A stretch of DNA of 14,381 bases, taken from positions 1 through 14,381 of the forward strand of contig CAZDOL010000002.1 of NCBI GenBank assembly GCA_964507075.1, in the 5' to 3' direction. The stretch's first letter is position 1. Each line of letters begins with the position of its first letter. The translations under genes and the position numbers were made by a program. Source of the DNA: an uncultured Gammaproteobacteria bacterium (GTDB lineage: Bacteria > Patescibacteriota > Patescibacteriia > UBA2591 > UBA6264). This document shows positions 1-14,381 of this stretch, in pieces. Under the pieces are notes generated by a model that worked only from the letters and a program-made list of their open reading frames with translations, was not told the DNA's origin and did not search any database.

Positions 1-76
1 CTTGGGAAATCGGTCAATTGGGTACTTAAGGATTGAATAATTGTATAATTAAATAATTAAAATCCTGATTACCCAA

Positions 77-772
77 TTACCTGTGTACCTGATTACCCAA
101 TCTCCATTCTGTAATTTCTTTATGATTGCCCGACAATAGAACTTTCGGTACTTTCAACTTTTTAATCTTAGCAGATTTAGTTTTATATGTAAAGACCTCT
201 GGTCTAGTATATTGAGGATACTCGAAATTAATTGTTGATTGTTGATTATTGATTGTTGATTGATTAAAACTCTCTTCTCTTAATGATTCTTTATTTATAA
301 CGCCAGGAAGTAGCCTGGTTATAGCATCTACCATAATCATAGCGGGCAATTCTCCTCCTGTTAAAACATAATCTCCAATTGATATCTTTTTATCAACTAA
401 TTTTTCTACTCTAGCGTCTACTCCCTCATAACGACCACAGATAAAAATAATCTTATCTAATTTAGAAAATTGATAAGCCATTTTTTGATCAAACTTCTGG
501 CCCTTTGGGGTTAAAAGAAAAATCTTTTTCTTTTTACTTTTTGTTTTATTTAAAGACTTCAAAGCTTTATAGATTGGCTCTACTTTTAAAATCATACCTG
601 GGCCACCACCATAAGGTGTGTCATCGACAGTTTTGTGCCTATCTGTTGTCCAAATTCTTAAATCATGAATTTTAATTTTAATAAATTTTTTCTCTTGGGC
701 TCTCTTTAAAATAGATGTCTGAAAATAAGATTCAAAGATGTGGGGAAAAATTGTAATAATATCAAATTGCAT
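77..772 (-). CDS. trmD: tRNA (guanine37-N1)-methyltransferase TrmD
   Basis: ORF 77..817 is trimmed to the internal ATG at 770-772, because MQFDIITIFPHIFESYF is the canonical TrmD N-terminus. TrmD motifs are present: DDTPYGGGPGM, GRYEGVD, GGELPAM, EYPQYTRP, LLSGNH. The 15 upstream codons are not TrmD-like and run into the intergenic hairpin region. The gene sits in the classic rpsP-KH-(rimM)-trmD context. Confidence 0.9.
   Translation of the reverse strand: MQFDIITIFPHIFESYFQTSILKRAQEKKFIKIKIHDLRIWTTDRHKTVDDTPYGGGPGMILKVEPIYKALKSLNKTKSKKKKIFLLTPKGQKFDQKMAYQFSKLDKIIFICGRYEGVDARVEKLVDKKISIGDYVLTGGELPAMIMVDAITRLLPGVINKESLREESFNQSTINNQQSTINFEYPQYTRPEVFTYKTKSAKIKKLKVPKVLLSGNHKEITEWRLGNQVHR
231..265. 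repeat. Heptanucleotide tandem repeat (ATTGTTG on +, AATCAAC on -), about 5 units, inside trmD
   Basis: The + strand reads attgttg attgttg attattg attgttg attg att. On the coding strand this encodes NQSTINNQQSTIN, inserted between the conserved EESF and FEYPQYTRP segments of TrmD. Confidence 0.75.
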
Positions 773-795
773 AATAACGTCTAAAATTAATCTTA

Positions 796-846
796 CAAAA
801 AAATAATGTAAACACAAAAGTTATCACCCGAAGAATGATAACTTCC
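796..846 (-). terminator. Intrinsic-terminator-like hairpin with C(UUCG)G apex, between the KH gene and trmD
   Basis: The minus strand reads GGAAGUUAUCA-UUCUUCGGG-UGAUAACUUUU. The 9-bp perfect arms lie at 818-826 and 836-844, with flanking G-U extensions. The stem is followed by U-rich UUUGUGUUUACAUUAUUUUUUUG. It lies 25 nt after the KH stop and about 45 nt before the trmD ATG. Confidence 0.5.
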
Positions 847-871
847 GTGTTCCTTTTATAGAAAATAATTT

Positions 872-1201
872 TTACAGTTTCAGATCGTCAGCACTGTCAT
901 CAATTTTCGCTTCTTCAACTACAGGCGTTTTTGGAACTCTAGTTGAACCTTCAGGTTCTTCAATTTTAAGGTTAACGCGAGCATTATTGCGTAAGCCTAC
1001 AATCCTGAGAAGACTCCTAATGGCGCGAGCGGTTGATCCTTGACGTCCAATAACTTGTCCCATATCTTCAGCATGAAGTTTTAAAGAGAGTAATACTCCC
1101 ATTTCATCAACATTCCTAGAAATTTTGACATCTTCTGGGTGAGAGACAAGCGCTTTAATAATCTGGTCTAAAAATTCTTGATCTTGATATTTATCTGCCA
1201 T
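872..1201 (-). CDS. khpA: KH-domain RNA-binding protein (KhpA/YlqC-like, UPF0109) with acidic C-terminal tail
   Basis: The 109-aa product contains the type-II KH core VIGRQGSTARAIRSLLRIVG (GxxG loop). Its N-terminus LDQIIKALVSHPEDVKI is typical of the YlqC family. The position immediately after rpsP is conserved. Confidence 0.8.
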   Translation of the reverse strand: MADKYQDQEFLDQIIKALVSHPEDVKISRNVDEMGVLLSLKLHAEDMGQVIGRQGSTARAIRSLLRIVGLRNNARVNLKIEEPEGSTRVPKTPVVEEAKIDDSADDLKL

Positions 1202-1314
1202 ATAACTTTAGATTACTTACCTCTAATTCATTAATGAACTAGTGAATGTTCAGTCTTACGACCTTTGAATAAACGAATAAACTACCTTGTTAGACTGAAA
1301 TTTCTATTATTTTT

Positions 1315-1342
1315 AATATATCAATATAAACAATTTTGTCAA
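1315..1342 (-). promoter_or_regulatory. Candidate sigma70-type promoter (TTGACA-16-TGaTATATT) upstream of the KH gene
   Basis: The minus strand reads ggTTGACAaaattgtttatatTGaTATATTaaaa. The -35 box is at 1337-1342, directly after the rpsP stop. The -10 box is at 1315-1320 and carries an extended TGn motif. There is no experimental support. Confidence 0.45.
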
Positions 1343-1344
1343 CC

Positions 1345-1758
1345 CTATTCTTTCTCTGGCTCTGGAACTTTTTCTTGATTGTCCTCTTCTGGTGCATTAT
1401 CTCCAGAGGGCTCTTCCTTTTCTGATTTGACTGGCTTCGTCTTTACTTTATCTTTCTCCTCAGCCAATTGTTTCTTTTTCTCTATCTTTTTTTGATTAAC
1501 CTTAGTAACTTTAACTTTTTCATCTTTAATTATCCCTTGAGCAATCAATAAATTATGCACTGATCCAGTAGGTTGAGCACCTTTTGATAACCAGTGCTTA
1601 ATTCTTTCGGCCTTCAGAGATGTTTCCTTGCTAAATGGATTGTGAAAACCCAAATCTTCTAAAAAATCTCCTTGTGGGTCTTTTGTTTTTTCTAAAACAA
1701 TAATTCTAAAAAATGGTTGCTTCTTTCTTCCTTTACGGCTTAATTTAATAGCTAACAT
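1345..1758 (-). CDS. rpsP: 30S ribosomal protein S16 with K/E-rich C-terminal extension
   Basis: The N-terminus MLAIKLSRKGRKKQPFFRIIV...DLGFHNP...IKHWLSKGAQPT is the S16 signature. The last ~55 aa form a low-complexity lysine/glutamate tail. Confidence 0.93.
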   Translation of the reverse strand: MLAIKLSRKGRKKQPFFRIIVLEKTKDPQGDFLEDLGFHNPFSKETSLKAERIKHWLSKGAQPTGSVHNLLIAQGIIKDEKVKVTKVNQKKIEKKKQLAEEKDKVKTKPVKSEKEEPSGDNAPEEDNQEKVPEPEKE

Positions 1759-1790
1759 AAATAAATTTTAATTAATCTTATCAATTTAAC

Positions 1791-2858
1791 CTACAATTCA
1801 ATAATGGAATTTTCTCCTATTATCAATTTATGTCCTCCTGGCAATGTTTGGTGGATTGGAACAATATTAACGTTTGCTCCTAAAATACTATCTACAATTC
1901 TAACCTCACAATTAACATCAACGTAATCCAAAAGAATAGAATTTTCAATCTCTGCATTATAAATCTCTACGCCATTTCCTATGGAAGTATATGGACCAAT
2001 ATAGGCATTTTTAATAACACAATTTTCTCCTATTATTACTGGACCGCGAATCACTGTCTTTTCTGATATGTTCGTATTTTTTCCTATAATGACATTCCCC
2101 TGGATTTCTACTGAATTAGGAATATCAACATTTATTTGACGCTTAATTCCTGAAAGTATCAGCTGGCTTGCCTCTAACAAATCATTAGGTTTGCCTGTAT
2201 CTTTCCACCAGCCAGTAATTTCATTGTATCCAATCTTATAGCCCTTATCAATTAAATAACTATGAGTATCTGATATTTCCAATTCTCCTCTAGCACTAGG
2301 CTCAATGTTTTTTACGGCCTCAAAAACATGATGGTCATAAAAATAAATGCCAGTCACGGCAAAATTACTTTTCGGATGTGATGGTTTTTCCTCTACCCTT
2401 AAAATACATCCATCCTTGATCTCTGGCACTCCAAATCTTTGTGGATCTCGCACCGCAGAAAGAGCCAATAAACAATTGTAGTCTCCTGTTTGAAATTGTT
2501 TAACAAATTTTTTAATATCTCCCAGAATTATATTATCACCCAAATAGAATAAAAACGGTTCCTTTCCGATAAATGGCTCACTAATTTTAACAACATGAGC
2601 CAAGCCCAGAGCTCCGCCCGTCTGCTCAATGTAGGTAATTTTTGCTTTCCATTTTTTCCCTGTACCCAAAGCTTGTGGAATCTCTTTGTCTCCTGGATTA
2701 ATAACAATTCCAATTTCTTTAATGCCAGCGTTAACGATTTTCTCTATAGCATAAACAAGCATTGGTTTGTTGGCAATGGGAATAAGATGTTTATTGAGTG
2801 CGTTTGTAATTGGTCTTAAGCGTGTACCATGACCTCCGGCCGTAAGTAAAGCTTTCAT
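1791..2858 (-). CDS. rmlA: Glucose-1-phosphate thymidylyltransferase, long form (nucleotidyltransferase domain plus left-handed beta-helix)
   Basis: MKALLTAGGHGTRLRPIT is the sugar-nucleotidyltransferase G-loop and matches the usual N-terminus, so the ATG at 2856-2858 is preferred over the ORF-track ATG at 2879. The C-terminal third is a hexapeptide-repeat region (IGENCVIKNAYIGPYTSIGNGVEI). At about 355 aa, the length fits the long RmlA type. It is adjacent to rmlD. Confidence 0.82.
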   Translation of the reverse strand: MKALLTAGGHGTRLRPITNALNKHLIPIANKPMLVYAIEKIVNAGIKEIGIVINPGDKEIPQALGTGKKWKAKITYIEQTGGALGLAHVVKISEPFIGKEPFLFYLGDNIILGDIKKFVKQFQTGDYNCLLALSAVRDPQRFGVPEIKDGCILRVEEKPSHPKSNFAVTGIYFYDHHVFEAVKNIEPSARGELEISDTHSYLIDKGYKIGYNEITGWWKDTGKPNDLLEASQLILSGIKRQINVDIPNSVEIQGNVIIGKNTNISEKTVIRGPVIIGENCVIKNAYIGPYTSIGNGVEIYNAEIENSILLDYVDVNCEVRIVDSILGANVNIVPIHQTLPGGHKLIIGENSIIEL

Positions 2859-2868
2859 AAATTTTAAG

Positions 2869-3801
2869 TTAAAACTCACTATTAATATAATCCCGTAGAG
2901 CTTTCTTCCAAGAACGGGCAGAAGAAATCTTAGTATTTCTCAATATAGAATAATTTGGCCTAGGAGCAGGCCTAGGATATTCTCTTGACGCGCAAGGAAC
3001 TATCCTGGCTACTGGCTTTTTAATAAAACCATATTTCAGGCCTTGACGAACGATTTCTTTGGCAAAGGTATACCATGTTGTTCGTCCTTTATTAGTAAAG
3101 TGATAGAAACCAAAGGGAAGATTATTGTCTAAAATTTCTTTTGTTTCTTGAGCTAAATCTAGAGTATAAGCAGGTGAACCGTGTTGATCATTAACCACTT
3201 TCAATAAAGGACGTTTCTCTGCTAAATCTAGAATGGTGCTAACAAAATTTTTGCAGGGAGTAGCCACTGAAGGGCCGAAGAGCCAAGCTGTTCTAATAAT
3301 ATAATATTTCTCTAACTTAGATTTAACGACATTCTTTTCTCCCAATGTTTTGGACCTACCATAAGCATTAAGAGATCTCTGTTCGTCATTCTCAGAATAA
3401 CCCTTTTTTTTCTGACCATCAAAAACATAATCTGTGCTGTAATGAACCAGCGTGGAATTCAAATTATAACATATTTCTGAAAGATAATTAAGGGCATTAC
3501 CGTTAATTTCATTGGCCGTGTCTTCATCATCTTCTGCCTTATCAACGTCAGTATAAGCAGCAGCGTTAATAATAATATCTGGCTTTAAAGAGTTTATTTT
3601 ATTTTTTAATACTTCTTTGATTGTAATGTCAATTTCTTCTCTATCCCATGCCGTTATATTTGCTCCCTGAAAAATCTTTTTTAAATCAGAGCCCAACATT
3701 CCTTTAGCTCCTAATATTAAAATTTTGGGGGGCTCTTGCCTGCCCAATGGGAGCGTAGCGACTTTACGGGGTTTCTTGTTTTTTACATTTTTGGCAAACA
3801 T
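2869..3801 (-). CDS. rmlD: dTDP-4-dehydrorhamnose reductase (RmlD) with atypical ~25-aa N-terminal extension
   Basis: The Rossmann motif ILILGAKGMLGS, the STDYVFDG and YGRSK (catalytic Y-x3-K) motifs and the C-terminal W..AL..Y motif are all RmlD-like. The start is uncertain. The only in-frame ATG (3799-3801) overlaps the infB 3' end by 19 nt, and the extension is encoded largely by GC-rich repeat copy A. An alternative TTG lies at 3745-3747. Confidence 0.8.
   Translation of the reverse strand: MFAKNVKNKKPRKVATLPLGRQEPPKILILGAKGMLGSDLKKIFQGANITAWDREEIDITIKEVLKNKINSLKPDIIINAAAYTDVDKAEDDEDTANEINGNALNYLSEICYNLNSTLVHYSTDYVFDGQKKKGYSENDEQRSLNAYGRSKTLGEKNVVKSKLEKYYIIRTAWLFGPSVATPCKNFVSTILDLAEKRPLLKVVNDQHGSPAYTLDLAQETKEILDNNLPFGFYHFTNKGRTTWYTFAKEIVRQGLKYGFIKKPVARIVPCASREYPRPAPRPNYSILRNTKISSARSWKKALRDYINSEF
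3734..3778 (-). repeat. GC-rich interspersed palindromic element, copy A (35-nt core 3739-3773 flanked by a 5-bp direct repeat)
   Basis: The minus-strand core is AACCCCGTAAAGTCGCTACGCTCCCATTGGGCAGG. It matches copy B at 31 of 36 aligned positions. CAAGA (TCTTG on +) abuts both ends, at 3734-3738 and 3774-3778. It is a GC island in AT-rich DNA. Confidence 0.6.
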
Positions 3802-5801
3802 TCAATTTCTTTATAAACTTCTAAAATATCGTTTTTTTCAATTTTTGTTTTACCTAAAAGTTTTAATCCACATTCCGTTCCAGCTAAAACTTCTTTGACG
3901 TCTTGTTTGCTGCTTTGAATTTGAACTAATTTAGACTCTCCTTTTATCTCATTTTCTCCTTCTGAATTTAACCGCCAAATTCGAGCAATGGTCTCGGGAA
4001 AAATTTTACCCTTTAAAACTTTTCCTCCCAGAATAGCTTCCTTCCCTGTTTGACGAAAAACTTCTAAGACCTCAATCTTACCCAATTTTTTTTCTGAAAT
4101 TTCCGGCTTAATTAAAGATTTCATAAAATCCTGAACATCTTCTATAAGCTTATAAATAACCTCATATAAATCCATTTTTATCTTTGATTCTTTTATCAAT
4201 TGTTTAACTGAATTATTAACCTTAATATTAAAACCAATTAACCATGATTGAGTAGTTTTTGCTAATTCTACATCGGCTTCAGTCAAGCTCCCTAATCCAG
4301 ATTTAACAATTCTCACCTCTACATTAGGGCAAATTAGACCCTTCAAACTCGTGATTATAGCTTCTAATGACCCAAGCACATCAGCGCGAATGATAACATT
4401 AACATATTCTGTGTCTTTTTTAGAAGAAGATACTTGATCTAAGGATAATGCTTGGTCAAAATGAGCTGAATTCATTTGTTTAATTTGAGATTTAAATTCT
4501 TTACCCTTATTAACAACTTCTACTAAATCACCTACCCCAGGAACCTCTTTTAAGCCGAATATCTGAGCTGGAAAACTGGGTTCAATCTTTTCTACAAATT
4601 CACCATATTGATTTTTGGCATATTTTAATCGACCATAAGTTTGTCCTGCAACAATATTATCTCCCTTCTTTAAGGTTCCATTATAAACAATAATTGTTGC
4701 TACTGGGCCTAATCCTAAATCTAGATGACTTTCAATTACAGTACCTATTAAGTCTCCTTCTGGATTGGTTAATAATTTATCTTTCTCTAAATCTGCTATT
4801 AAATTAATCATATCCAATAAATTATCCAGGCCTTCTTTACTTTTGGCTGAAACTGACACACAAATTATTTTACCACCCCAATCTTCAGGCAAAAGGTTTA
4901 TTTCTGATAAACCTTTTTTAATTTTTTCCGCATCAGCTTCTGCTCTATCAATTTTATTAATAGCAACAACAAAAGGCAATTCTTCTTTCTGAATAACCCT
5001 AATAGATTCCAATGTTTGAGGTTGTATTTTATCATCAGCAGCTATGACCAAGATTGCAATATCAGCAACTGCACCACCATGAGCACGCATGGCTTCAAAA
5101 GCTTCGTGTCCAGGAGTATCAATAAAAGTAATTAACCTATCTTTATATTTTGTTTGATAAGCTCCGATATGTTGAGTAATCCCACCTTTTTCTTTTGCAA
5201 CAATTTGACTTTCTCTAATGGCGTCTAAAATTGAACTTTTACCATGGTCAACATGTCCCATAACCACCACGATAGGTGGCCTTGAAACTATTTTTTTCTT
5301 GTCCTCTGTTTTTAAAATATCTTTTACCCTTTCCTTGGCAGAAATAGATACTATATTCTCCACCTCTTCTTCTTTTGCCACTTCAAAACCTAAATTCTCA
5401 GCTATGATAGCTGCTATTTCATAGTCTAAGTTTTCGTTAATACTAGAAAGAACTCCATTTTTAATGAGTTCATTCATTACTTTCATAACTGGCAATTTTA
5501 ATTTTTCTGCTAAATCATAAACTCTTATTAATTGAGGCAAATTTACTAACTTAGGTTTTTCTTCCTCATTACTCTCTTCCTCTAAGGATTCTTTTGCGTA
5601 TGCCTTATTTATTTTAGCTTCTATCTTCTCTATTTCTTTTTCTTTTTTTCTATTTTCTTGCCACATTTCAACTACTTGCATGGCCTGTTTTTCTGGAATC
5701 TGAATAGCTCTTGCTCCAATATGAAAACCGAGCTTAGGTAATGCTATTTTAAGCTCTTTTGGGGTAATCTTTAACTTTCTAGCAAGTTCTGTAATATTCA
5801 T
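3783..5801 (-). CDS. infB: Translation initiation factor IF-2
   Basis: There is an IF2 N-terminal domain (MNITELARKLKITPKEL). The G-domain motifs GHVDHGKS, DTPGHEAF and NKID are present, and the C-terminal IF2 domains run to the end. The product is 672 aa. Confidence 0.93.
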   Translation of the reverse strand: MNITELARKLKITPKELKIALPKLGFHIGARAIQIPEKQAMQVVEMWQENRKKEKEIEKIEAKINKAYAKESLEEESNEEEKPKLVNLPQLIRVYDLAEKLKLPVMKVMNELIKNGVLSSINENLDYEIAAIIAENLGFEVAKEEEVENIVSISAKERVKDILKTEDKKKIVSRPPIVVVMGHVDHGKSSILDAIRESQIVAKEKGGITQHIGAYQTKYKDRLITFIDTPGHEAFEAMRAHGGAVADIAILVIAADDKIQPQTLESIRVIQKEELPFVVAINKIDRAEADAEKIKKGLSEINLLPEDWGGKIICVSVSAKSKEGLDNLLDMINLIADLEKDKLLTNPEGDLIGTVIESHLDLGLGPVATIIVYNGTLKKGDNIVAGQTYGRLKYAKNQYGEFVEKIEPSFPAQIFGLKEVPGVGDLVEVVNKGKEFKSQIKQMNSAHFDQALSLDQVSSSKKDTEYVNVIIRADVLGSLEAIITSLKGLICPNVEVRIVKSGLGSLTEADVELAKTTQSWLIGFNIKVNNSVKQLIKESKIKMDLYEVIYKLIEDVQDFMKSLIKPEISEKKLGKIEVLEVFRQTGKEAILGGKVLKGKIFPETIARIWRLNSEGENEIKGESKLVQIQSSKQDVKEVLAGTECGLKLLGKTKIEKNDILEVYKEIECLPKM

Positions 5802-5855
5802 AATTCCAATATTTTAATGTTCCAATGTTCCAATGTTCTCATGCTCTAATGTTTT
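5800..5855. repeat. Octanucleotide tandem repeat (AATGTTCC on +, GGAACATT on -), about 7 units, spanning the vanW 3' end, the spacer and the infB start codon
   Basis: The + strand units in 8-nt register are ataattcc, aatatttt, aatgttcc, aatgttcc, aatgttct, catgctct and aatgtttt. The array encodes the VanW tail TLEHENIGTLEH, which has 8-aa periodicity. It also forms the whole 12-nt spacer before the infB ATG. Confidence 0.7.
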
Positions 5856-7652
5856 CCCCACCATCCACACTTCTGGCCAGGCCTTATAATGACTTTTCCA
5901 AATGTCTCGACGAACAACACCATTTGGGAAGGTAATAATATTTTCAAATTTGGTATCAGCCCCAGCATGTGACGATTCAATTCTTTTCTTCTCCCCGGGC
6001 TCTAATTCTGTAGTTTCTATAAACTGTATTGGCCCAGGTTGCGTAATATTAAAAATTTCTGGTTCCTTATTGAATACTTGTCGTCCATCAGAAGTGCCAT
6101 AAAACTCAAAAATTAAATCATCGTCTTTAATTTCGGTTTGTAATAATAAATGATAGCCCGTGTCATTAATGAATCTAAGGTCAGGATGAGGACTATAAAT
6201 AGTTGCGTCCGTACCAGCTGGTTCATAATAAAAAACTCGATAAGAATGCGAAGAGCGTTCAGTGATTGGCAAACCAGCACTAAAAGCTAACCTAAACATA
6301 GTTGTGCCAATTTGACATAATCCTCCCCCATATTCCGGAACTGTCCTATCTCCTTTGATAACAAGCTCTGGCAAAAAACCTGCTTCTGCGTTTATTTCTC
6401 CCAATGCTTGAATTAAAGAAAATTCCTGGTCTGGGGCAATAAGAATTCCATGTAAAATTTGAGCGCCAATACGAATATTATATCTACGATTTTTCGGACT
6501 TCCCCAAAAATTAGAAGAGCCTTGAGCTATAAATTCCTGAATACCCAAACCATCTAAATCGTCAGGTAAAGGGACAGGGTCAACTTTGTCCACTTTAAGT
6601 GCTATTTCTTTTTCCTCTCCAAACAAGATATTGCGGGTAATGATATCTTTGCTGGTTTCTATGTTCAGTATCATTCCAGATTGTCCAGCCTGAAACTCGG
6701 TAACTTTTTTCTCAAAACTATTTCCGTCTATCTCCAAGCGCGTTTCTATGGGAGCGACATTTAATTCTTGAGCAATTTCTTCCAGATATAGTTTCAATTT
6801 TTCCTGATCTATAGATAGATTAATCTGACGATTAAGGCCTTCCTGAAAGATAAACCATTCGCTAACCCGACGAGAGGAACAGGTCCATTCCTTGTCTTCA
6901 TATTTTAATTTATAAGGAGCTTTATCAAAAATTCCTTGAGCTTTGGCAAAGGCTAAACTTGAATCTTCTGCGCTTATGCCTGCTTTGTCAATAAAAGAGT
7001 TTATAATAATTTCTTGACTATCAAAATTCTCTAAATTTTCAATTAATTCATTTAACGCCTTGTCGTAATCCAAAATAAATCCATTTATTTCCAAATTTAA
7101 TTTAAGCTCATTATTCTCTAAAACAATTTCCGCGTTTTGAGACGGCTTTTCTAATTCTTTAAACTTTTCTTCCAAAATTTCTCTTAATTCCTTCTGATTG
7201 ATATAAACATGAGATGGTACGACTTGAGGTTTTGCTAAAATAATAAATTTTTTAGAAAATTTTTGCCAAATATTCCCAGTTCTCCCCATTAACAAAGCTT
7301 CAGTCAATGCTTTTTGGATGTCAAAACTAACTATTTGACGGCTTAAGTCAGGATCAGTCAAACCGATCAAAGACGAAGAAATCGTGGCGGAGATATCGCC
7401 TAAGTCTGTTTGAGCTCTAAAAGAAAGCCCTTTTCTTTCTATTTTTTCAGTAGCAATATTTAAAAGAACTTTTGCTTCTTCTGCTTTTAAACCTCCAATA
7501 TTCAAATTTTGACAATAAACATTGGGATAAATAGATTGACTGTAAATTTTTTGAAAAATTAAAGAATAAGCAATAATGACAATTAAAATCAGTAAGGGGT
7601 AAAAAAGGATCCTATAATATATTTTTTTTTTATTTTTTAACTTAAATTTCAT
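5814..7652 (-). CDS. VanW-family protein with N-terminal membrane anchor
   Basis: The VanW domain signature is present: YGGGLCQIGTTMFRLAFSAGLPITERSSHSYRVFYYEP...GTDATIY. The N-terminus has a hydrophobic helix (ILFYPLLILIVIIAYSLIF) after a lysine-rich start. The start ATG overlaps the hsp20 stop (ATGA). Confidence 0.85.
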   Translation of the reverse strand: MKFKLKNKKKIYYRILFYPLLILIVIIAYSLIFQKIYSQSIYPNVYCQNLNIGGLKAEEAKVLLNIATEKIERKGLSFRAQTDLGDISATISSSLIGLTDPDLSRQIVSFDIQKALTEALLMGRTGNIWQKFSKKFIILAKPQVVPSHVYINQKELREILEEKFKELEKPSQNAEIVLENNELKLNLEINGFILDYDKALNELIENLENFDSQEIIINSFIDKAGISAEDSSLAFAKAQGIFDKAPYKLKYEDKEWTCSSRRVSEWFIFQEGLNRQINLSIDQEKLKLYLEEIAQELNVAPIETRLEIDGNSFEKKVTEFQAGQSGMILNIETSKDIITRNILFGEEKEIALKVDKVDPVPLPDDLDGLGIQEFIAQGSSNFWGSPKNRRYNIRIGAQILHGILIAPDQEFSLIQALGEINAEAGFLPELVIKGDRTVPEYGGGLCQIGTTMFRLAFSAGLPITERSSHSYRVFYYEPAGTDATIYSPHPDLRFINDTGYHLLLQTEIKDDDLIFEFYGTSDGRQVFNKEPEIFNITQPGPIQFIETTELEPGEKKRIESSHAGADTKFENIITFPNGVVRRDIWKSHYKAWPEVWMVGKTLEHENIGTLEH

Positions 7653-8146
7653 CCTGAAACTTTAATATTTTTTTGGCCATCAACATCTTCTGCCTTGGGT
7701 AAAATTATTTTTAAAATGCCATTTTTAAAATTAGCTTTAACATCATTAGGTTTAATTGGACAAGGCAAGATTAAAGTTCTAGAAAATTTTCCCCAAAAAC
7801 ATTCTTGATAATAATAATTCAAGTTTTCTTTTTGATTTTTAACCTGAGATCTACTTCCACGAATAACAATTAAATCTGGCTCGGTAATAATATCTATATC
7901 CTTAGCTTGTACGCCAGCAATCATTGATTCAATGATTAAACAATCATCATCTTCATAAATGTCAACCGACAACTGACCCTGACTTTCTTCTGGCAACCAA
8001 TCTTCAGTGCTTTCCTCTTCTTTCTTGCGGGGTTTTTTCATTTTTTTAATTTTGGCATCTTCAACCCCTGCAATAATACTAACCTCTTCTCCTTGCTTAT
8101 TGAGAAGCTCTTGATTTAAACCTGATATTTTACTCCAAAAACTCAT
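7649..8146 (-). CDS. Small heat-shock protein, Hsp20/alpha-crystallin family
   Basis: The alpha-crystallin domain reads GQLSVDIYEDDDCLIIESMIAGVQAKDIDI...FSRTLILPCPIKPNDVKANFKNGILKIILPK. The product is 165 aa. Confidence 0.87.
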   Translation of the reverse strand: MSFWSKISGLNQELLNKQGEEVSIIAGVEDAKIKKMKKPRKKEEESTEDWLPEESQGQLSVDIYEDDDCLIIESMIAGVQAKDIDIITEPDLIVIRGSRSQVKNQKENLNYYYQECFWGKFSRTLILPCPIKPNDVKANFKNGILKIILPKAEDVDGQKNIKVSG

Positions 8147-8165
8147 AAGAAATTTTTAAATTATT

Positions 8166-9395
8166 CTAATAAAAATAAACTGGATAAATTTTTCCGCAAT
8201 CTATAATTTTTTCGTTAATATTTTGATAACTTAAATAGACGTCTATATCAGGATATCTATTCTTAAAAGACTCCACTGAACTGAATTTTGCGCTTTTCAA
8301 ATAGGCCTTTGATTCTATTGCTATAGTTCTGCCATTACCTAAAAAAATGATAAAATCAATCTCATTCTTTTTCTTATCACGCCAAAAGTTGAATTTATAA
8401 TCATTTTTAATGAATTGTTGAGCTAATCCATTTTCCAGCAATAACCCTTTGTCTGGTCTTGTGTCTAATTTTCTAAAATCATCAACAATAAAATTTCTTA
8501 ATCCTGTATCTAAAAAATAAACTTTAGGATTTTTAACAATTTCAGTTCTTCTATTTTTAAAATACGGCCTCAAAAAACTACATATATAAGTTTTTTCTAA
8601 AAAATTCAAGTATTTTTTCAAAGAAGGATAAGAATAACCCGATACTTGAGATAATTCCTGATAATCTAATAAATTTCCTACTTGCAAAGCAAGCGCTTTT
8701 GTTAAATTATTCAATTTATAATCATCAATCAGACCCAATATATCCCTGACCTCCCTTAAAAAATAAGTGTTATAAATATTACGCAGGAGTTCTTTCTTTG
8801 CATCATAACTATTCTCTAAAACAACGCGTGGATAACCTCCGAAAAGCAAGTGCTCTTCATAATAATGTAATAATTTTTTATGAGCCTCCGTTCCTATGCT
8901 TATTTGAATGTCTTTAAATTGTTCAACTAATTTTCTATTCTTTTTATATATCTTTAAGTAATTCTTGTCCTTAGCTGACAAAAACTCTTGAAAATCAAAT
9001 GGATAAAGATTAAAGATTAAAACCCTGCCAACTAAATATTTTACCGCTCTAACGCTTAAATCAATTGCAGAAGATCCTGAAATTATAATTTTTATTTTCT
9101 GAGAATCAAAGATGTACTTAAGTGTCTTGCCTCCATTTTTTGCATATTGGAATTCGTCAATAAATAAATATTTGTTTCCTTTTATGTATATATTTATAAA
9201 ATCATCCGTTTGATTTTCAAACATTCTTAATATATTTTGGTCATCAAAAGAGATAGAAACAGCATTGCTAAGATTTTTGATTAAATGATTAATCATTGTG
9301 GTTTTTCCTGTTTGACGAGCGCCCGTTATGGCAATTATCTCTCTAGCGTCCAAATACTTCAAAATGGTACTCTCTAAATTACGCTTAATATACAT
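8166..9395 (-). CDS. AAA+ superfamily ATPase, COG1373-like (AAA_14 plus DUF4143 architecture), function unknown
   Basis: A Walker A motif (ITGARQTGKTT) and a Walker B-like motif (YLFIDEFQ) are present. At 409 aa, the length and C-terminal region are typical of the DUF4143 ATPase family. By eye the gene is more AT-rich than its neighbours. Confidence 0.8.
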   Translation of the reverse strand: MYIKRNLESTILKYLDAREIIAITGARQTGKTTMINHLIKNLSNAVSISFDDQNILRMFENQTDDFINIYIKGNKYLFIDEFQYAKNGGKTLKYIFDSQKIKIIISGSSAIDLSVRAVKYLVGRVLIFNLYPFDFQEFLSAKDKNYLKIYKKNRKLVEQFKDIQISIGTEAHKKLLHYYEEHLLFGGYPRVVLENSYDAKKELLRNIYNTYFLREVRDILGLIDDYKLNNLTKALALQVGNLLDYQELSQVSGYSYPSLKKYLNFLEKTYICSFLRPYFKNRRTEIVKNPKVYFLDTGLRNFIVDDFRKLDTRPDKGLLLENGLAQQFIKNDYKFNFWRDKKKNEIDFIIFLGNGRTIAIESKAYLKSAKFSSVESFKNRYPDIDVYLSYQNINEKIIDCGKIYPVYFY

Positions 9396-9434
9396 AAAAT
9401 TTGCATATCGTTACTATAATTAAACTATACGTCA

Positions 9435-9463
9435 ATTATAGTTCCATCTTATATTTTTGTCAA
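9435..9463 (-). promoter_or_regulatory. Perfect-consensus sigma70-type promoter (TTGACA-17-TATAAT) upstream of the ATPase gene
   Basis: The minus strand reads TTGACAaaaatataagatggaacTATAAT. The -35 box is at 9458-9463 and the -10 box at 9435-9440, separated by a 17-nt spacer. The start codon is about 40 nt downstream. An 8-bp inverted repeat CTATAATT/AATTATAG (9434-9441 and 9414-9421) overlaps the -10 box. Confidence 0.6.
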
Positions 9464-9469
9464 TACATG

Positions 9470-9517
9470 CTAATGCCTGCCCCGTGGGAGAGGTAGCGAC
9501 TCTACGGGGTTCTAATG
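9470..9517 (-). repeat. GC-rich interspersed palindromic element, copy B (36-nt core 9476-9511 flanked by an exact 6-bp direct repeat)
   Basis: The minus-strand core is AACCCCGTAGAGTCGCTACCTCTCCCACGGGGCAGG. It forms a hairpin through CCCCGU/ACGGGG and AGAG/CUCU pairing around a 7-nt loop. CATTAG (CTAATG on +) abuts both ends, at 9470-9475 and 9512-9517. Confidence 0.65.
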
Positions 9518-9520
9518 ACT

Positions 9521-11743
9521 TTAGTCCGCTTTCATTGTTGCAACACTAACGCCTCCGTGAAAACTACGAGAATAAGAATGAAACTGTGAAACAGGATCGC
9601 CAGATGGAGCAAAAATATTAATTTGTGGTTCTTTAGAGCCATTAGGAGCTACAATAATTTCTACCTTATTGTCTTCATCAAAATCAGCAGTTGCTATATT
9701 AGTGCCGTGATAAAAATCTTTAGAATAAGCCAAAAATTGTAAACGCAATAAAAGTAATTTAGAATCAAAAACTCTGATATAAGCAGATGCTTCTGAAGCA
9801 ACGCTTGCTAAAATTTCATTTTGGCCATCTCCATCTACATCGCCTATTGCAACATCAACACCACCTAAGAAATTTTTATTAAAAGCAAAAAAGTGGAATT
9901 TAATATTACCTTGACCATCAAAAACTCTAATATGAGGGCCACCGCCTGGGCCAGCGCCAGTTACAATCTCCTCTTTGCCGTCTCCATCTACGTCGCCCAC
10001 AGCTACATTAACGCCACCCTTGAAATTTTTATGATAAGCAAAAAAATCAGCTTTTATGTTCCCATTAATATCAAAAACTTTAATATTGGAATTACCATTA
10101 GGCCCTGGGGCTGTAATAATCTCATCTATTCCATTCCCATCTACATCGCCCACAGCTATATTAACACCACCCCTAAAACTATCATCATAAGCAAAGAATC
10201 CACCCTCAGGATAGCCGCCTACATTAAAAACTCTAACATGAGGGCCACCGCCTGGGCCAGCGCCAGTTACAATCTCGTCTTTGCCGTCTCCACTAACATC
10301 TCCAGCTGCAACCTGAACTCCACCTCTAAAATTTTCATTGTAAGCAAAGAATCCGCTTAAAGGCAATCCTGCTGAGTCAAAAACTCTAACATGAGGGCCA
10401 CCGCCTGGGCCAGCGCCAGTTACAATATAATAAGATTGATGCAATGTTCCCAACTGACTATATGCATAATCAATAGTAGCGTAAGCGTTTACCCTTCCTC
10501 TGCCTAATTGTCCTTCCAAACCCGGATTAAAAGCATCAATATCATCGGCATGATTTAAAATAAAATCTTGAACTTGCTTTTGACTAAAAAGGGGATTTAC
10601 AGACCAAACCAAAGCTGCTAAGCCCGAAACTATAGGCGCGGCAATTGAGGTTCCTGACCAATAACCGCCATAATATTCTCTGTAATTCTCATAATTAGGG
10701 TTATAAGCTAAAGCTCCATAAATTCTGGTTCCAGGAGCGGAAATATCAACGCATATACTGCCAAAATCAGAAAAAAGCGCTTTGTGGTCAGTGTCATCTA
10801 GGGCCGCCACGCCAATGATAAAATTTTCATCATCATCTTCGTCCAAACATATGGGATAATTTGGATTTTCATTAAGATTTACTGGCTGATTTACTGTTTC
10901 ATTACCAGCAGCTGCGACTACAATCACTCCATTTTTCCATGCCTCTTTCAGGGCTTCTGCCAAGAAAAAACTCTTGCTGGTGCCAACAAAACTTAAATTT
11001 ATAATCTTAGCTCCATTATCAACTGCATAACGAACGGCGCGAATAACATGCTCCACACTCCCTGTGCCCTGACTATTTAAAACTCTAAGAGGCATAATCT
11101 TACTGTTCCATGCCAAACCAGTGATTCCTTCGTTGTTATTTCCAACTGCCGAAGCAATGCCAGCAACTAAAGTTCCATGATGAATACCACTTTCATTATA
11201 ATCCTCGTCAAATTTTGGCTTAGGATCAAGGGTGCTCCTTACAAAATCCCAACCACGCAAATCATCTATATAACCATTATTGTCGTTGTCCTTTCCGTCT
11301 CCTCGTATTTCGTCTTTATTCAACCATATATTTTCTTTTAAATCAGGATGGTCAATATCAACGCCTGTATCTAAAATAGCAATAACAATATCTTGATTTC
11401 CTCCTTTAGTAAAATCCCAAGCTTGAGGAGCTTTAATTTTGCCCAAATACCACTGTTGGTCATATAATAAATCCGCGGGAATAAAAGCAGCTTGAAAGGA
11501 ATAATTTGGCTCAACATAATCCACTAAAGGCAAAAAAGAAAACATTTTCTCCATTATCTTAGCGAATAAAGGATTAACTGGAATCTTATAAATCTCCTGT
11601 TTGTTTTTTAATCTAACCAAAAGTTCATTATGTCCCGAACCAGAAACATTAAATGGAATAAACGAAAACAAGGTGAGTAAAAAAATACTCAACAAAAAAA
11701 TAACTATAATTTTCTTTCTCTTAAAAAACATCATAATGGTCAT
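9521..11743 (-). CDS. Secreted subtilisin-like serine protease (peptidase S8) with I9-like propeptide and C-terminal FG-GAP/VCBS-type repeat propeller
   Basis: The catalytic triad contexts are ILDTGVDIDHPDL (Asp), HHGTLVAGIA (His) and GTSIAAPIVSG (Ser). The start is set at ATG 11741-11743 because MTIMMFFKRKKIIVIFLLSIFLLTLFSF is a classical signal peptide; ATGs at 11734 or 11731 are equally possible. The 46 upstream ORF-track codons run through the GC-rich structured spacer and look non-coding. Confidence 0.85.
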   Translation of the reverse strand: MTIMMFFKRKKIIVIFLLSIFLLTLFSFIPFNVSGSGHNELLVRLKNKQEIYKIPVNPLFAKIMEKMFSFLPLVDYVEPNYSFQAAFIPADLLYDQQWYLGKIKAPQAWDFTKGGNQDIVIAILDTGVDIDHPDLKENIWLNKDEIRGDGKDNDNNGYIDDLRGWDFVRSTLDPKPKFDEDYNESGIHHGTLVAGIASAVGNNNEGITGLAWNSKIMPLRVLNSQGTGSVEHVIRAVRYAVDNGAKIINLSFVGTSKSFFLAEALKEAWKNGVIVVAAAGNETVNQPVNLNENPNYPICLDEDDDENFIIGVAALDDTDHKALFSDFGSICVDISAPGTRIYGALAYNPNYENYREYYGGYWSGTSIAAPIVSGLAALVWSVNPLFSQKQVQDFILNHADDIDAFNPGLEGQLGRGRVNAYATIDYAYSQLGTLHQSYYIVTGAGPGGGPHVRVFDSAGLPLSGFFAYNENFRGGVQVAAGDVSGDGKDEIVTGAGPGGGPHVRVFNVGGYPEGGFFAYDDSFRGGVNIAVGDVDGNGIDEIITAPGPNGNSNIKVFDINGNIKADFFAYHKNFKGGVNVAVGDVDGDGKEEIVTGAGPGGGPHIRVFDGQGNIKFHFFAFNKNFLGGVDVAIGDVDGDGQNEILASVASEASAYIRVFDSKLLLLRLQFLAYSKDFYHGTNIATADFDEDNKVEIIVAPNGSKEPQINIFAPSGDPVSQFHSYSRSFHGGVSVATMKAD
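9524..10429 (-). repeat. Six tandem ~51-aa FG-GAP-like blades with near-identical DNA segments
   Basis: The protein repeat unit is IVTGAGPGGGPH(V/I)RVF..G....FFAY...F.GGV.VA.GDVDGDG..E, present six times, with the last two copies degenerate. The DNA segment aaaactcta(a/t)(c/t)atgagggccaccgcctgggccagcgccagttacaat recurs at 9921-9970, 10227-10276 and 10380-10425. Confidence 0.8.
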
Positions 11744-11890
11744 AAACGTCAGTCCCGGGGACTGGCTCCGACCTGCCCGCCTTGCTTTGCAAGGCGAAGC
11801 GGGCGGGAGGTGCCTGTCCCCATTTAAAACGTCAGTCGTTAAAGAGGAGCGAAGCGACGGGAAAACGTCTGACGTTGACATTAATAAAAA
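11744..11890 (-). repeat. Compound GC-rich structured element cluster (related to copies A and B) filling the gyrA-protease spacer
   Basis: Hairpin 1 spans 11828-11876, with 13-nt arms paired at 12 of 13 positions. Hairpin 2 spans 11757-11821, is 65 nt long and has a CCUUGC-aaa-GCAAGG apex. An exact 11-nt direct repeat AAACGTCAGTC lies at 11744-11754 and 11827-11837. GCGAAGC occurs twice, at 11794-11800 and 11849-11855. The termini CCCG... and ...GGGCAGG/GGGACAGG are shared with copies A and B. Confidence 0.5.
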
Positions 11891-14377
11891 TCAAACCAAC
11901 GTAAAAGACCCAACCTTATCTTCATTTCCTTTAAACCTCATCAACCTAACTCCTTGAGTAGCCCTAGCCAAGCCAGGAATACTAGATAAAGGCAAACGAA
12001 TCGTTTGTCCAGCTTGAGAAATCAACAATAAATCAGTAAATTCAGTTTTTTCCGAAATAAGTCTTGAGCCAATAATTTTACCTGTTTTCTCATTAATTTT
12101 TGCGGTCTTTAGCCCTGATCCACCTCTGCCTTGAAAATGGTAATTATCAATAGTTGTTGTTTTCCCAAAACCATTCTCAGTAACAATTAATAATCTAGAA
12201 CCCTTTTCTTTTGATTTAGTAATAATTTCTGCGCCCACTAATAAATCATCAGTTTTTAATCTAATTCCTCGCACACCAGATGCTGTTCTGCCCATAGCTC
12301 TTAAATCTTTTTCCTTAAATCTAATAGCTTTCCCTTTCTCTGAAACAAGAATTATTTCATCTTCTCCAGAAGTAGGCTTAGTCCAACTCAAAATATCATC
12401 ATTCTTTAATTTTAATGCTATCAAGCCCGAACGGCGGACATTTTCAAAAGCGCTAATTTCTACTTTTTTTACAACGCCATTTTGTGTTGCAAAAAACAAA
12501 TATTTATAATTTTTAAGATCTGAAAATGGCAAAACAGTTGATATCTTTTCGTTTTCCTGTACTTCCAAAAAGTTAACTATTGCTTTTCCTTTAGCAGTTC
12601 TTGAAGCTTGGGGAATATCATACGCCTTGAGCTGAAAAACTCTTCCTTTTGTTGTAAAAAGCAAAACATCAGCATGAGTAGTAGTGGTTATTAATTGCTC
12701 TACCGAATCTTCATCTTTCGTTGAAAAACCAACCACTCCTTTTCCTCCACGAGCTTGGGTCTTAAAATCCTCTGGAGATACTCTTTTAATATATCCATCT
12801 TGGGTAATCATTAAAACCGTAGGTTCATTAGGAATTAAATCTTCTTCCTTAAATTTTTCAATGCCGCGCGGAACAATTTTCGTGCGTCGTTCGTCTCCAT
12901 GAGATTCTTTGACTTCCTTTATTTCTTTTTTAATAATATCTAAAATCATTTTTGGCTTAGCCAAAATTTCTTCCAACTCTTTGGCAAATTTTTTCTTTTC
13001 GTTTAATTCATCTTTATTCTTTTGTCTTTCTAAATGAGCCAACTGATGAAGTCGTATTTCTAAAATGGCCTGCGCTTGGATGTCGGTCAATTTAAACTTT
13101 TTTATTAAACTTTTTTTGGCTTCTTCTTTGTTCTCAGATTTTTTAATTAACTCAATAACCTGATTAATGTTATCAATGGCTATCTGCAAACCCTCTAAAA
13201 TATGAATTCTTTCTTTTGTTTTAGTTAGATTGTATTGAGTTCGCCTTTTAACAACAACTTGTCTGTGCTTAATATACTCTTCTAAAACCCTTTTTAAACC
13301 TAAAAGCTTGGGCTGAACTTCGTCCACCAAACAAACCATATTTACATGAAAAGTTTGTTGACAATCTGTTAGCTTAAAAAGACGATTCAATATTTTCTGA
13401 GGAAATGCTCCTTTTTTTAATTCAATAACAATGCGAACCCCATGCTTATCTGACTCATCACGAATATCTTTAATGTCCTGAATCCTTTTGGTTTTAACTA
13501 ATTCCGCCATTTTTTGTAAAAGAGTGGCCTTGTTAACTTGATAGGGTATTTCATTAATTATGATTTGAAAAAGTCCCAGTTTCTTTTCAATAATTTCTGT
13601 TTTTGCCCGCATTACAATCGGACCCTTGCCAGAAGCATAAACTTGTTTAATTTGATTATCATCAAAAATAAGTCCACCAGTTGGAAAATCAGGACCTTTA
13701 ATATATTGAAGCAGGTCTTCAACGTCACAATCTGGATTATCTATCTTATAAATTGTTGCGTCGCAAACTTCAGTTAAATTATGGGGAGGAATGTTAGTGG
13801 CCATACCAACAGCAATTCCCATTGAACCATTAAGAAGTAAATTGGGAATTTTAGCTGGTAGAACAGATGGTTCTTTGGTTGTACCGTCATAATTAGGAAC
13901 AAAATTAACTGTATCCTGGTCAATATCAATCAACATTTCTGAAGAAATCTTAGCCATTCTGCTCTCTGTGTATCTATGCGCCGCAGCTTTGTCCCCGTCG
14001 ATACTTCCAAAATTTCCTTGCCCATCTACTAATGGATATCTTAAAGAAAAATCTTGAGCCAATCTAACCATAGACTCATAAATCGCCTGGTCTCCATGCG
14101 GATGAAAACTGCCAAGCACGTGACCAACGACAGTAGCCGATTTTCTATATTTAACATTATGTCTTAGCCCCATCTCATGCATAGCATAAAGAATACGACG
14201 ATGAACAGGTTTCAAACCATCTCGCACGTCTGGTAAAGCTCTGGCAACAATAACACTCATTGCATAATCTATATATGAAGACTTAACCTCATCTTCTAAA
14301 TTTACGGGTTCTACGCCTTTTTCATTATTTTCTTCTTTTGTTTCTTCAATTTCTTCTTCTTTTGTTTCTTCTTTCAT
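11891..14377 (-). CDS. gyrA: DNA gyrase subunit A
   Basis: Motifs present are [20 protein letters not shown], the QRDR-type HPHGD segment, the active-site [10 protein letters not shown] (catalytic Tyr) and the GyrA-box QARGGKGV in the C-terminal beta-pinwheel. The product is 828 aa and includes a ~25-aa acidic N-terminal extension. Confidence 0.95.
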
Positions 14378-14381
14378 TTTA

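Follow-up and report, generated by a model that had tools for sequence, protein, structure and literature searches.

A 14,381-nt stretch of contig CAZDOL010000002.1 (assembly GCA_964507075.1, positions 1 to 14,381 of the forward strand; hereafter the window), from an uncultured bacterium of the Patescibacteria, carries a GC-rich block inside the 5' end of rmlD, the gene for dTDP-4-dehydrorhamnose reductase. This block (copy A) is probably a GC-rich hairpin element of 33 nt (11 codons) that was inserted in frame into an N-terminal extension already present in RmlD. The block belongs to a family of such elements, a unit of exactly 33 nt is present in the window and missing from its closest relative, the ATG and the open frame of rmlD are conserved, the extension is predicted to be disordered, and the hairpin of copy A is broken. 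Copy A is thus real but more ordinary than the initial annotation of this DNA had proposed, namely a translated passenger in a pre-existing disordered leader.

Copy A lies in the N-terminal extension of RmlD

On the plus strand the block reads CCTGCCCAATGGGAGCGTAGCGACTTTACGGGGTT (3739-3773) and is bordered by TCTTG on both sides (3734-3738 and 3774-3778); its GC content is 60%, against 34% for the window. On the minus strand, which carries all the large open reading frames (ORFs) of the window, it encodes residues K10-R21 of RmlD (KPRKVATLPLGR), N-terminal to the Rossmann strand region KILILGAKGMLG. Block, flanks and encoded peptide are all where the initial annotation had placed them, within the translated 5' end of rmlD, and the block does lengthen an atypical N-terminal extension by 11 residues. 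The unit whose presence varies between genomes is the 33-nt core at 3739-3771; the AA at 3772-3773 is part of the flank and not of the element. The features of this region are:

2869-3801, minus strand: rmlD (dTDP-4-dehydrorhamnose reductase), 310 aa; PF04321, E = 1e-87
3727-3801, minus strand: N-terminal extension of RmlD, 25 codons, from the ATG at 3799-3801; predicted disordered
3732-3738, minus strand: downstream flank repeat CAAGAGC; codons 22-24, QE..
3739-3771, minus strand: copy A, putative inserted core, 33 nt (CCCCGTAAAGTCGCTACGCTCCCATTGGGCAGG); RmlD codons 11-21, PRKVATLPLGR; 57.6 bits against the family model R1
3772-3778, minus strand: upstream flank repeat CAAGAAA; part of codons 8-10; its last two bases form the AA of the AA^CA junction
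3783-3801, minus strand: overlap of the infB 3' end and the rmlD 5' end, 19 nt; the same in the gene calls of the relatives L001, L003, L006 and L009
3783-5801, minus strand: infB; overlapped by the rmlD ATG at 3799-3801

The Pfam profile RmlD_sub_bind (PF04321) matches the window protein with 294 bits (cutoff 27) over residues 26-307, from profile position 2 onwards, and the Rossmann motif GAKGMLG (GxxGxxG) is invariant in the RmlD alignment, which identifies the host gene as a genuine rmlD. The N-terminus of the protein reads MFAKNVKNKK[PRKVATLPLGR]QEPPKILILG, with the residues of copy A in brackets. In the AlphaFold model, residues 1-21 have pLDDT < 50 and the first secondary structure is a strand at 26-30, which is consistent with a disordered leader that would tolerate an insertion of 11 residues. 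Comparison of the window and L001 by codon shows substitutions in the extension at all three codon positions in about equal proportion, which suggests constraint on the frame and not on the residues. Copy A and a second copy in the window (copy B, described below) are present and identical in 10 independent assemblies of the same species, which occurs in samples such as ERZ27248920 and JGI 3300028162.

The closest relative has the extension but not the element

Close RmlD homologues were recovered together with their contigs, and the gene order and the 19-nt infB/rmlD overlap are conserved among them. The assignment of the window to the Patescibacteria (CPR) follows the source names of these homologues. 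A neighbour-joining tree of 745 InfB and RmlD columns (200 bootstraps) places L009 as sister to the window (200/200 bootstraps; 90.9% amino-acid identity), followed by L001 (162/200) and then L003, with L014 as the outgroup (62% identity); the positions of L006, L012 and L013 are not fixed. RmlD of L009 (MFTKNVKDKK-QETNNKPKILILG) starts at the same ATG with the same 19-nt overlap, but its gene is without exactly the 33 nt (AAG AAA ^ CAA GAA, the site reading CAAGAAACAAGAA) and keeps both copies of CAAGA(A). This comparison changes several points of the initial annotation. The 5-bp flanks had been taken for a target-site duplication, but both of them are retained in the empty site of L009. It had also been argued that core plus one repeat is 40 nt, which is not a multiple of 3, and that the insertion may have created the present ATG-initiated frame. 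The arithmetic is correct but the premise is not: the unit is 33 nt, its absence therefore keeps the ATG in frame, and the insertion did not create that frame. A homologous RmlD extension without the repeat, which the initial annotation itself had named as evidence to the contrary, is what L009 has.

The ATG and the open frame are conserved in five lineages (window, L009, L001, L003 and L006), with no frame-breaking indels, and in L009, L001 and L006 no in-frame ATG, GTG or TTG is found between the upstream ATG and the Rossmann strand. The TTG inside the element (3745-3747, RmlD codon 19), which had been offered as an alternative start, is not conserved in these three relatives. In L001, L003 and L006 the extension is as long as in the window, and each of these relatives carries an AT-decayed copy of the element at offset +28 from the ATG (26/35 matches to the family consensus in L001, 21/35 in L006 and 17/35 in L003), which is the best or near-best match in its locus; background matches in L009, L012, L013 and L014 are at 12-13/35. 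L012 and L013 have short extensions with an ATG of their own, and the extension of L014 has 15 residues, a different ATG and no remnant of the element. Judged from these sequences, the extension is older than copy A and independent of it.

A second empty site and the flanking repeats

At 655-689 of L058 (SDBT01015648.1) a copy interrupts the gene of RsmI, a 16S rRNA methyltransferase (PF00590). Its product has the sequence ...ESYHQ[PRKVATRQRGR]HSKL..., compared with ESYHQHSK in the 12 nearest homologues (74-84% identity); Y, H, Q, H and S of the motif SYHQ/HSK are all invariant. The filled DNA site is TATCATCAA[33 nt]CATTCAAAA and the empty one TATCATCA(A/G)CATTCAAAA, with L065/L066 as the empty alleles compared with L058. 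The insertion is therefore exactly the 33-nt core, 11 codons, with nothing duplicated, and the near-repeat CATCAA/CATTCA around it is already present in the empty sites. With this invariant motif split, the L058 enzyme may still work, or the insertion may be recent and deleterious.

Over the family, AA stands 5' of the core at 12/12 sites and CA stands 3' of it at 9/12. Most sites lie between two copies of a 7-8-nt repeat of the type CAnnn(n)AA, given here as left and right copy:

L050: CATTGGAA and CATTGGAA
L057 and L062: CACATAA and CACATAA
L060: ATTGGAA and ATTGGAA; CATTGGAA and CATTAGAA
Copy B: CATTAGAA and CATTAGCA
Copy A: CAAGAAA and CAAGAGC
L052 and L054: CAAGAAA and CAATAAC

The flanks match at >= 7/8 positions at 4/13 sites (background probability 0.002-0.006 per site), the 7-nt repeat of copy A (3772-3778 and 3732-3738) being an imperfect one. 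The same flank types recur across different genomes, and unoccupied tandem arrays of these units exist as well. Because L009 keeps both repeats and the RsmI site has no duplication, the sequences argue for flanks that are pre-existing short tandem repeats and not target-site duplications. Either the element targets repeat junctions, or some insertions duplicate 7-8 nt and the arrays are their footprints; both modes may occur.

A family of short elements in Patescibacteria

The initial annotation had seen in the block a copy of a dispersed GC-rich hairpin element, and this is borne out by the second copy at 9476-9511 and by about 12 family sites in all. The second copy and a related array in the window are:

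9476-9509, minus strand: core of copy B, 34 nt, with intact hairpin; intergenic, from 11 nt past the stop of the S8 peptidase gene
5811-5842, minus strand: unoccupied tandem 8-mer array AACATTGG AACATTGG AACATTAA AATATTGG; at the VanW/infB junction

Copy B is bordered on both sides by CATTAG, within the flanks CATTAGAA (9510-9517) and CATTAGCA (9468-9475). A hidden Markov model of the two copies (nhmmer) gives the copy B match E of about 1e-8, the likeness of A and B being far beyond chance, and each scores 55-58 bits against the family covariance model. The repeat type of the array at 5811-5842 also flanks copy B and copies in L050 and L060. This array supplies the last codons of the VanW-like gene and the spacer ahead of infB; longer arrays of its unit are found in L050 (6923-6952), and L012 has a related array at the 3' end of its S8 gene (CATTAGAACATTAGAACATTA, type CATTAGAA).

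The 19-mer common to copies A and B (AACCCCGTARAGTCGCTAC) served as search key, and family matching was by nhmmer and the covariance model (R1). Among all GTDB species representatives the 19-mer has 2 sites only, both in another metagenome-assembled genome (MAG) of the Patescibacteria (JAYEIQ01, MAG187); in JGI metagenomes it matched 15 contigs, 1 of them by chance. After de-duplication there are about 12 sites in at least 8 Patescibacteria contig sets of 32-46% GC. The copies found by these scans score 51-63 bits against R1, and the part of the family consensus (AA followed by CCCCGTAAAGTCGCTACGCTCCCACGGGGCAGG) that lies outside the search pattern is nearly identical among them. Copy number is low, with 2 in about 18 kb of the window species and 2 in the whole of MAG187 by the 19-mer scan.

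RNAalifold predicts a hairpin of 6 + 3 base pairs with compensatory changes at 0/9 pairs, so that the conserved feature is the sequence. The termini CCCCGT...ACGGGG, only 6-7 bp, are kept in every intact copy, as well as in the diverged relatives found in L053. The inner stem is better in one variant (GTCGC/GCGAC), and in another (L052, L055 and L059) the loop holds a second, nested hairpin of 21 nt. This mini-hairpin (CCCGCCTCATCGGCGGGCAAG, 7 codons; at 102-157 in L052) is absent from the otherwise matching copy at 1165-1199 of L054, and ends in GGGCAAG as the host element does, an ending that may point to a wider class of hairpin-plus-CA(A/G)G inserts. A further observation is a chain of at least 4 GC-rich hairpins in a single intergenic stretch of ~400 nt in L053 (4300-4700, minus strand), three of which share the termini CCCCG.../...CGGGGCA(A/G)G and differ in their interiors.

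The core is stop-free in 4/6 frames and 11 codons long, and it is therefore tolerated inside ORFs. Copies occur in both orientations relative to genes, and those embedded in ORFs use all four open frames: in RmlD (window), RsmI (L058), the tail of a Laminin_G_3 protein (L054), a pilin-like leader (L050) and a zinc-ribbon tail (MAG187). RmlD and RsmI share one reading frame of the element (PRKVAT..GR), while the others read NPVKSLRSHGAG (C-terminal tail, L054), CLPRGSVATLRG (pilin-like leader, L050) and LAPLERSDFTG (zinc-ribbon tail, MAG187). In MAG187 (L026 7189-7344; L027 about 350-480) the element is duplicated together with ~95 nt of the small zinc-ribbon gene (…YCKDCYQREIDQW…); the duplicates are inverted and 22.7 kb apart on one contig, one reading through the element and the other having a stop 9 nt before it.

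In BLAST searches the consensus had no match among phage and plasmid collections, and two scans of viral contigs with half-element patterns returned chance matches only, in GC-rich contigs. An Rfam 15 scan of the whole window (E <= 1) has no match at either copy, its mir-540 match being spurious and on a different hairpin, and a tRNA and tmRNA scan of the window found none. In the searchable literature, no account of such elements in bacteria of the Candidate Phyla Radiation (CPR) was found. Several known kinds of sequence were considered for the element and rejected: a CRISPR repeat (the copies are neither arrayed nor regularly spaced), domain V of a group II intron (the AGC triad and the GNRA loop are absent), an integron attC site (no R'/R'' GTT/AAC pair on one strand), translational bypassing (a hop between the CAAGA repeats shifts the frame, and straight read-through is in frame) and an RNA intron of the bulge-helix-bulge type (the flanks are direct repeats and not complementary).

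Hairpin state and age of copy A

The hairpin of copy A is degraded, as had been reported initially. Its folding energy is -1.8 kcal/mol (z = +0.9), not superior to that of shuffled sequences, compared with -7.8 for copy B, -6.4 for the consensus and -9.8 (z = -3.3) for the GCGAC variant. The initial annotation had read this decay as a possible mark of age, which the sequence comparison does not favor. Copy A differs from the consensus at 2/35 positions, which are adjacent bases (CGG to TTG, codon 19) and both break the outer stem, whereas the orthologous copies differ at 9 (L001), 14 (L006) and 18 (L003) of 35 positions. At four-fold sites L009 diverges from the window by 25%, and L001, L003 and L006 by 36-44%. 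The two changes would fit an age of copy A at or below the split of the window and L009, and neutral residence since the split from L001 would fit poorly (rough Poisson p about 0.03). C>T and G>A changes shared by the L001 and L003 copies were not used as evidence of common descent, parallel AT-biased decay being equally expected.

Because decayed copies stand at the same offset in L001, L003 and L006, the rmlD site would appear to have been occupied long ago. In the simplest history, the element would then have been lost precisely, either on the branch to L009 or in the ancestor that L009 shares with the window, an excision that we infer from the phylogeny. The window copy would have been re-inserted or converted recently at that same junction, or else kept near the consensus or homogenised with other copies.

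Translation and mobilisation

We propose that rmlD starts at the ATG that overlaps the last 19 nt of infB, its initiation presumably being coupled to infB termination because no Shine-Dalgarno sequence is evident at this ATG. A Lys-rich disordered leader would precede the Rossmann strand KILILG, and the element would simply be translated as PRKVATLPLGR in a part of RmlD without structural role. Translation through copy A would yield peptides such as MFAKNVK... and ...KKPRKVATLPLGR. As to mobilisation, we can only speculate that the element is non-autonomous and moves as a folded single-strand hairpin in a HUH/Y1-like 'peel and paste' process served by a trans-acting enzyme, or that copies flanked by repeats convert one another through short homology. 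The 20 proteins scanned contained no transposase domain.

Alternative explanations

The explanation nearest to the initial annotation is that a 35-nt element resembling a miniature inverted-repeat transposable element (MITE), inserted with duplication of a 5-bp target site (40 nt in all) and thereby gave the upstream ATG its frame and RmlD its extension. Direct repeats do flank copies A and B, several other copies have perfect flank repeats of 7-8 nt, and 4/13 sites match at >= 7/8 positions against the low background given above. But L009 combines the same ATG, the 19-nt overlap, a homologous extension and both repeats with the lack of the element, the RsmI insertion is exactly 33 nt without duplication, and the outgroup L014 has its 15-residue extension with no element remnant; we thus consider this explanation improbable. 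It is no more credible that RmlD starts at a downstream non-ATG codon (e.g., the TTG at 3745-3747) and that the element is an untranslated 5' leader. This would agree with a fast-evolving extension in which the three codon positions have changed about equally, with its predicted disorder and with an ATG that has no Shine-Dalgarno sequence, but not with the persistence of the ATG, the overlap and the unbroken frame in five lineages despite 25-44% four-fold-site divergence. Moreover, L001, L006 and L009 lack this TTG and contain no other in-frame start ahead of the Rossmann strand, and the codon at the usual RmlD start position is Pro. A third explanation, to which we give very little weight, takes the hairpins to be immobile, functional 3'-end structures in RNA or DNA (terminators, mRNA stabilisers or protein-binding sites) that follow stop codons, copy A being a decaying relic between infB and rmlD. 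The AACCCC end does lie 9 nt past the stop codon of the upstream gene in both window copies (8 nt in L060a), and a consensus TTGACA-17-TATAAT promoter follows copy B. Yet no T-run follows the hairpins, as it would in an intrinsic terminator (the sequence next to the hairpin is CAAGAGCCCCCC for copy A and CATTAGCATG for copy B), and the element occurs in both orientations and inside ORFs, even in the invariant enzyme motif of RsmI. What is conserved is also the sequence and not just the pairing, with 0/9 pairs showing compensatory changes and no Rfam match, and the loop of the copies in L052, L055 and L059 contains another, nested hairpin.

Several observations weigh against an in-frame insertion into an older extension, or at least against parts of it. 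The perfect flank repeats of the non-coding copies (8/8 in L050 and 7/7 in L057) look exactly like target-site duplications, and the empty tandem arrays could be excision footprints, with duplication at some insertions. Clean empty sites number two only (L009 and RsmI), and L009 carries three extra codons slightly downstream, which makes a complex indel possible. For rmlD itself, repeated independent hits on a hot spot are equally possible. No transposase or recombinase is found near any copy, the surroundings being contig fragments only, and we infer translation from the upstream ATG from sequence.

Other features of the window and its relatives

Between the S8 peptidase and HSP20 genes the window has a gene for an AAA_14/DUF4143 ATPase (8166-9395, minus strand), whose consensus promoter lies within 9430-9470. 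This gene is missing in L003, L006, L012 and L014, where S8 directly precedes HSP20; copy B stands exactly at the upstream edge of the AAA_14/DUF4143 block, and ATTAG is found at both block edges. The intergenic region between gyrA and S8 contains a different, long GC-rich hairpin of ~64 nt (11757-11829, minus strand; TAAATGGGGACAGGCACC...GTCCCCGGGA) with a true 9-bp duplication on its flanks (CTGACGTTT), and the empty site in L003 has a single (A)TGACGTTT immediately before ATGACCATTATG. By its sequence, it looks like a classical MITE-type insertion. Owing to this hairpin the S8 ORF with its start at 11881 is too long, the real start probably being the ATGATG near 11733.

The S8 peptidase gene also has FG-GAP tandem repeats of 153 nt (51 residues) at 9763-10426, three of which share 96-100% identity over 50 nt, against about 64% for the rest, thus suggesting recent duplication or conversion inside the gene. 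In L012 (310-3228), gyrA contains an intein (972 aa; Intein_splicing and PT-HINT matches), which gyrA of the window and of the other relatives lacks (826-828 aa). A look-up of the window gyrA gave no identical recorded product. Several relatives have almost no called genes over 2-2.6 kb downstream of trmD (L016 13231-15836; L003 14115-16166).

Comparison with known systems

Rickettsia palindromic elements (RPEs) are palindromic repeats that are inserted in frame in unrelated genes and translated (PMC10969869). The window element shares with them the palindromic repeat, the reduced AT-rich bacterial genome and the in-frame translated insertions. RPEs are, however, about 100-150 bp long, confined to Rickettsia and divided into ten families, whereas the window element has 33 nt, an unrelated sequence and a Patescibacteria host, and is low-copy in the data seen. 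The GC clusters of yeast mitochondria (GC42) are ~40-nt GC-rich hairpins in an AT-rich genome, with target dinucleotides and footprints (PMC4478555). Sporadic presence and absence, footprints, nesting or merger of hairpins and the lack of a known enzyme are common to both. GC clusters differ in being mitochondrial and mostly intergenic with an AG target dinucleotide on both sides, while the window element lies at AA^CA in 7-8-nt tandem repeats, without duplication at two clean sites, and some of its copies are coding.

Classical MITEs (Correia, ERIC etc.) resemble the element in being non-autonomous, in having short terminal inverted repeats (here CCCCGT/ACGGGG) and in fusing with ORFs, but they are 50-500 bp long, derived from insertion sequences (IS) and flanked by target-site duplications, of which there are none at the two clean empty sites. 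In HUH/Y1 'peel and paste' transposition, insertion without target duplication and seamless loss are expected. REP/REPIN and IS200/IS605 elements have in common with ours the short imperfect palindrome, the lack of target duplication and the seamless loss, as far as excision can be read from the phylogeny. The folding energies of the consensus and of the GCGAC variant are in keeping with the 20-40-nt imperfect palindromes of REP/REPIN. In the REP/REPIN-RAYT system, however, REPs are extragenic, high-copy, arranged in inverted doublets and marked by a 5' GTAG, whereas the window element is low-copy and found inside ORFs, with GTAG only in the loop of the complementary strand. IS200/IS605 elements insert 3' of a fixed tetra- or pentanucleotide and have distinct left-end and right-end hairpins; the window element has one hairpin only, and its sites share AA on the 5' side (12/12) and mostly CA on the 3' side (9/12). 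No RAYT/TnpA gene is seen in the contig fragments. These systems use hairpin-recognising HUH/Y1 enzymes and single-stranded intermediates (PMC6006769). Overall, the element is closest in behaviour to RPEs and GC clusters and lacks defining features of RPEs (size and taxon), MITEs (target duplication and IS ancestry) and REPs (GTAG box, extragenic location and high copy number). The small dispersed repeats (SDR) of cyanobacteria (Elhai et al. 2008) are reportedly hairpin-type mobile repeats of 21-27 nt with site preference and nesting. Compared by description, SDR and the 33-nt window element are alike in small size, hairpin, site preference and nesting, and differ in phylum and sequence. For SDR5, insertion in HIP1 is cited in PMC5861425.

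Significance

For annotation, these results mean that the long RmlD start (ATG overlapping infB) is probably correct in this clade and that the GC-rich stretch is an insertion and not a mis-called start. The filled and empty allele pairs (rmlD in the window and L009; rsmI in L058 and L065/L066) make the insertion chemistry testable. The concept of a palindromic element inside genes, as in RPEs and mitochondrial GC clusters, is extended to another reduced AT-rich lineage and to a much smaller size. Proteins of CPR/Patescibacteria are known for lineage-specific length differences, and a hairpin element of whole-codon length that enters ORFs seamlessly would be a concrete and testable source of them. 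More tentatively, and as less likely than not, we suggest that Patescibacteria may harbor hairpin elements of an ultra-small class (33 nt, 11 codons) that has not been described before. Their entry and exit at AA^CA of short tandem repeats would be seamless and would duplicate no target, a host or trans-acting enzyme probably acting on the folded single strands. Being of codon length and open in four frames, they could colonise coding sequence, even invariant motifs, and the recurring arrays of the (CATTGGAA)n type at gene junctions would be their landing pads or footprints. If so, no smaller mobile DNA that invades proteins would be known in bacteria, and CPR proteins would owe lineage-specific peptide insertions to it.

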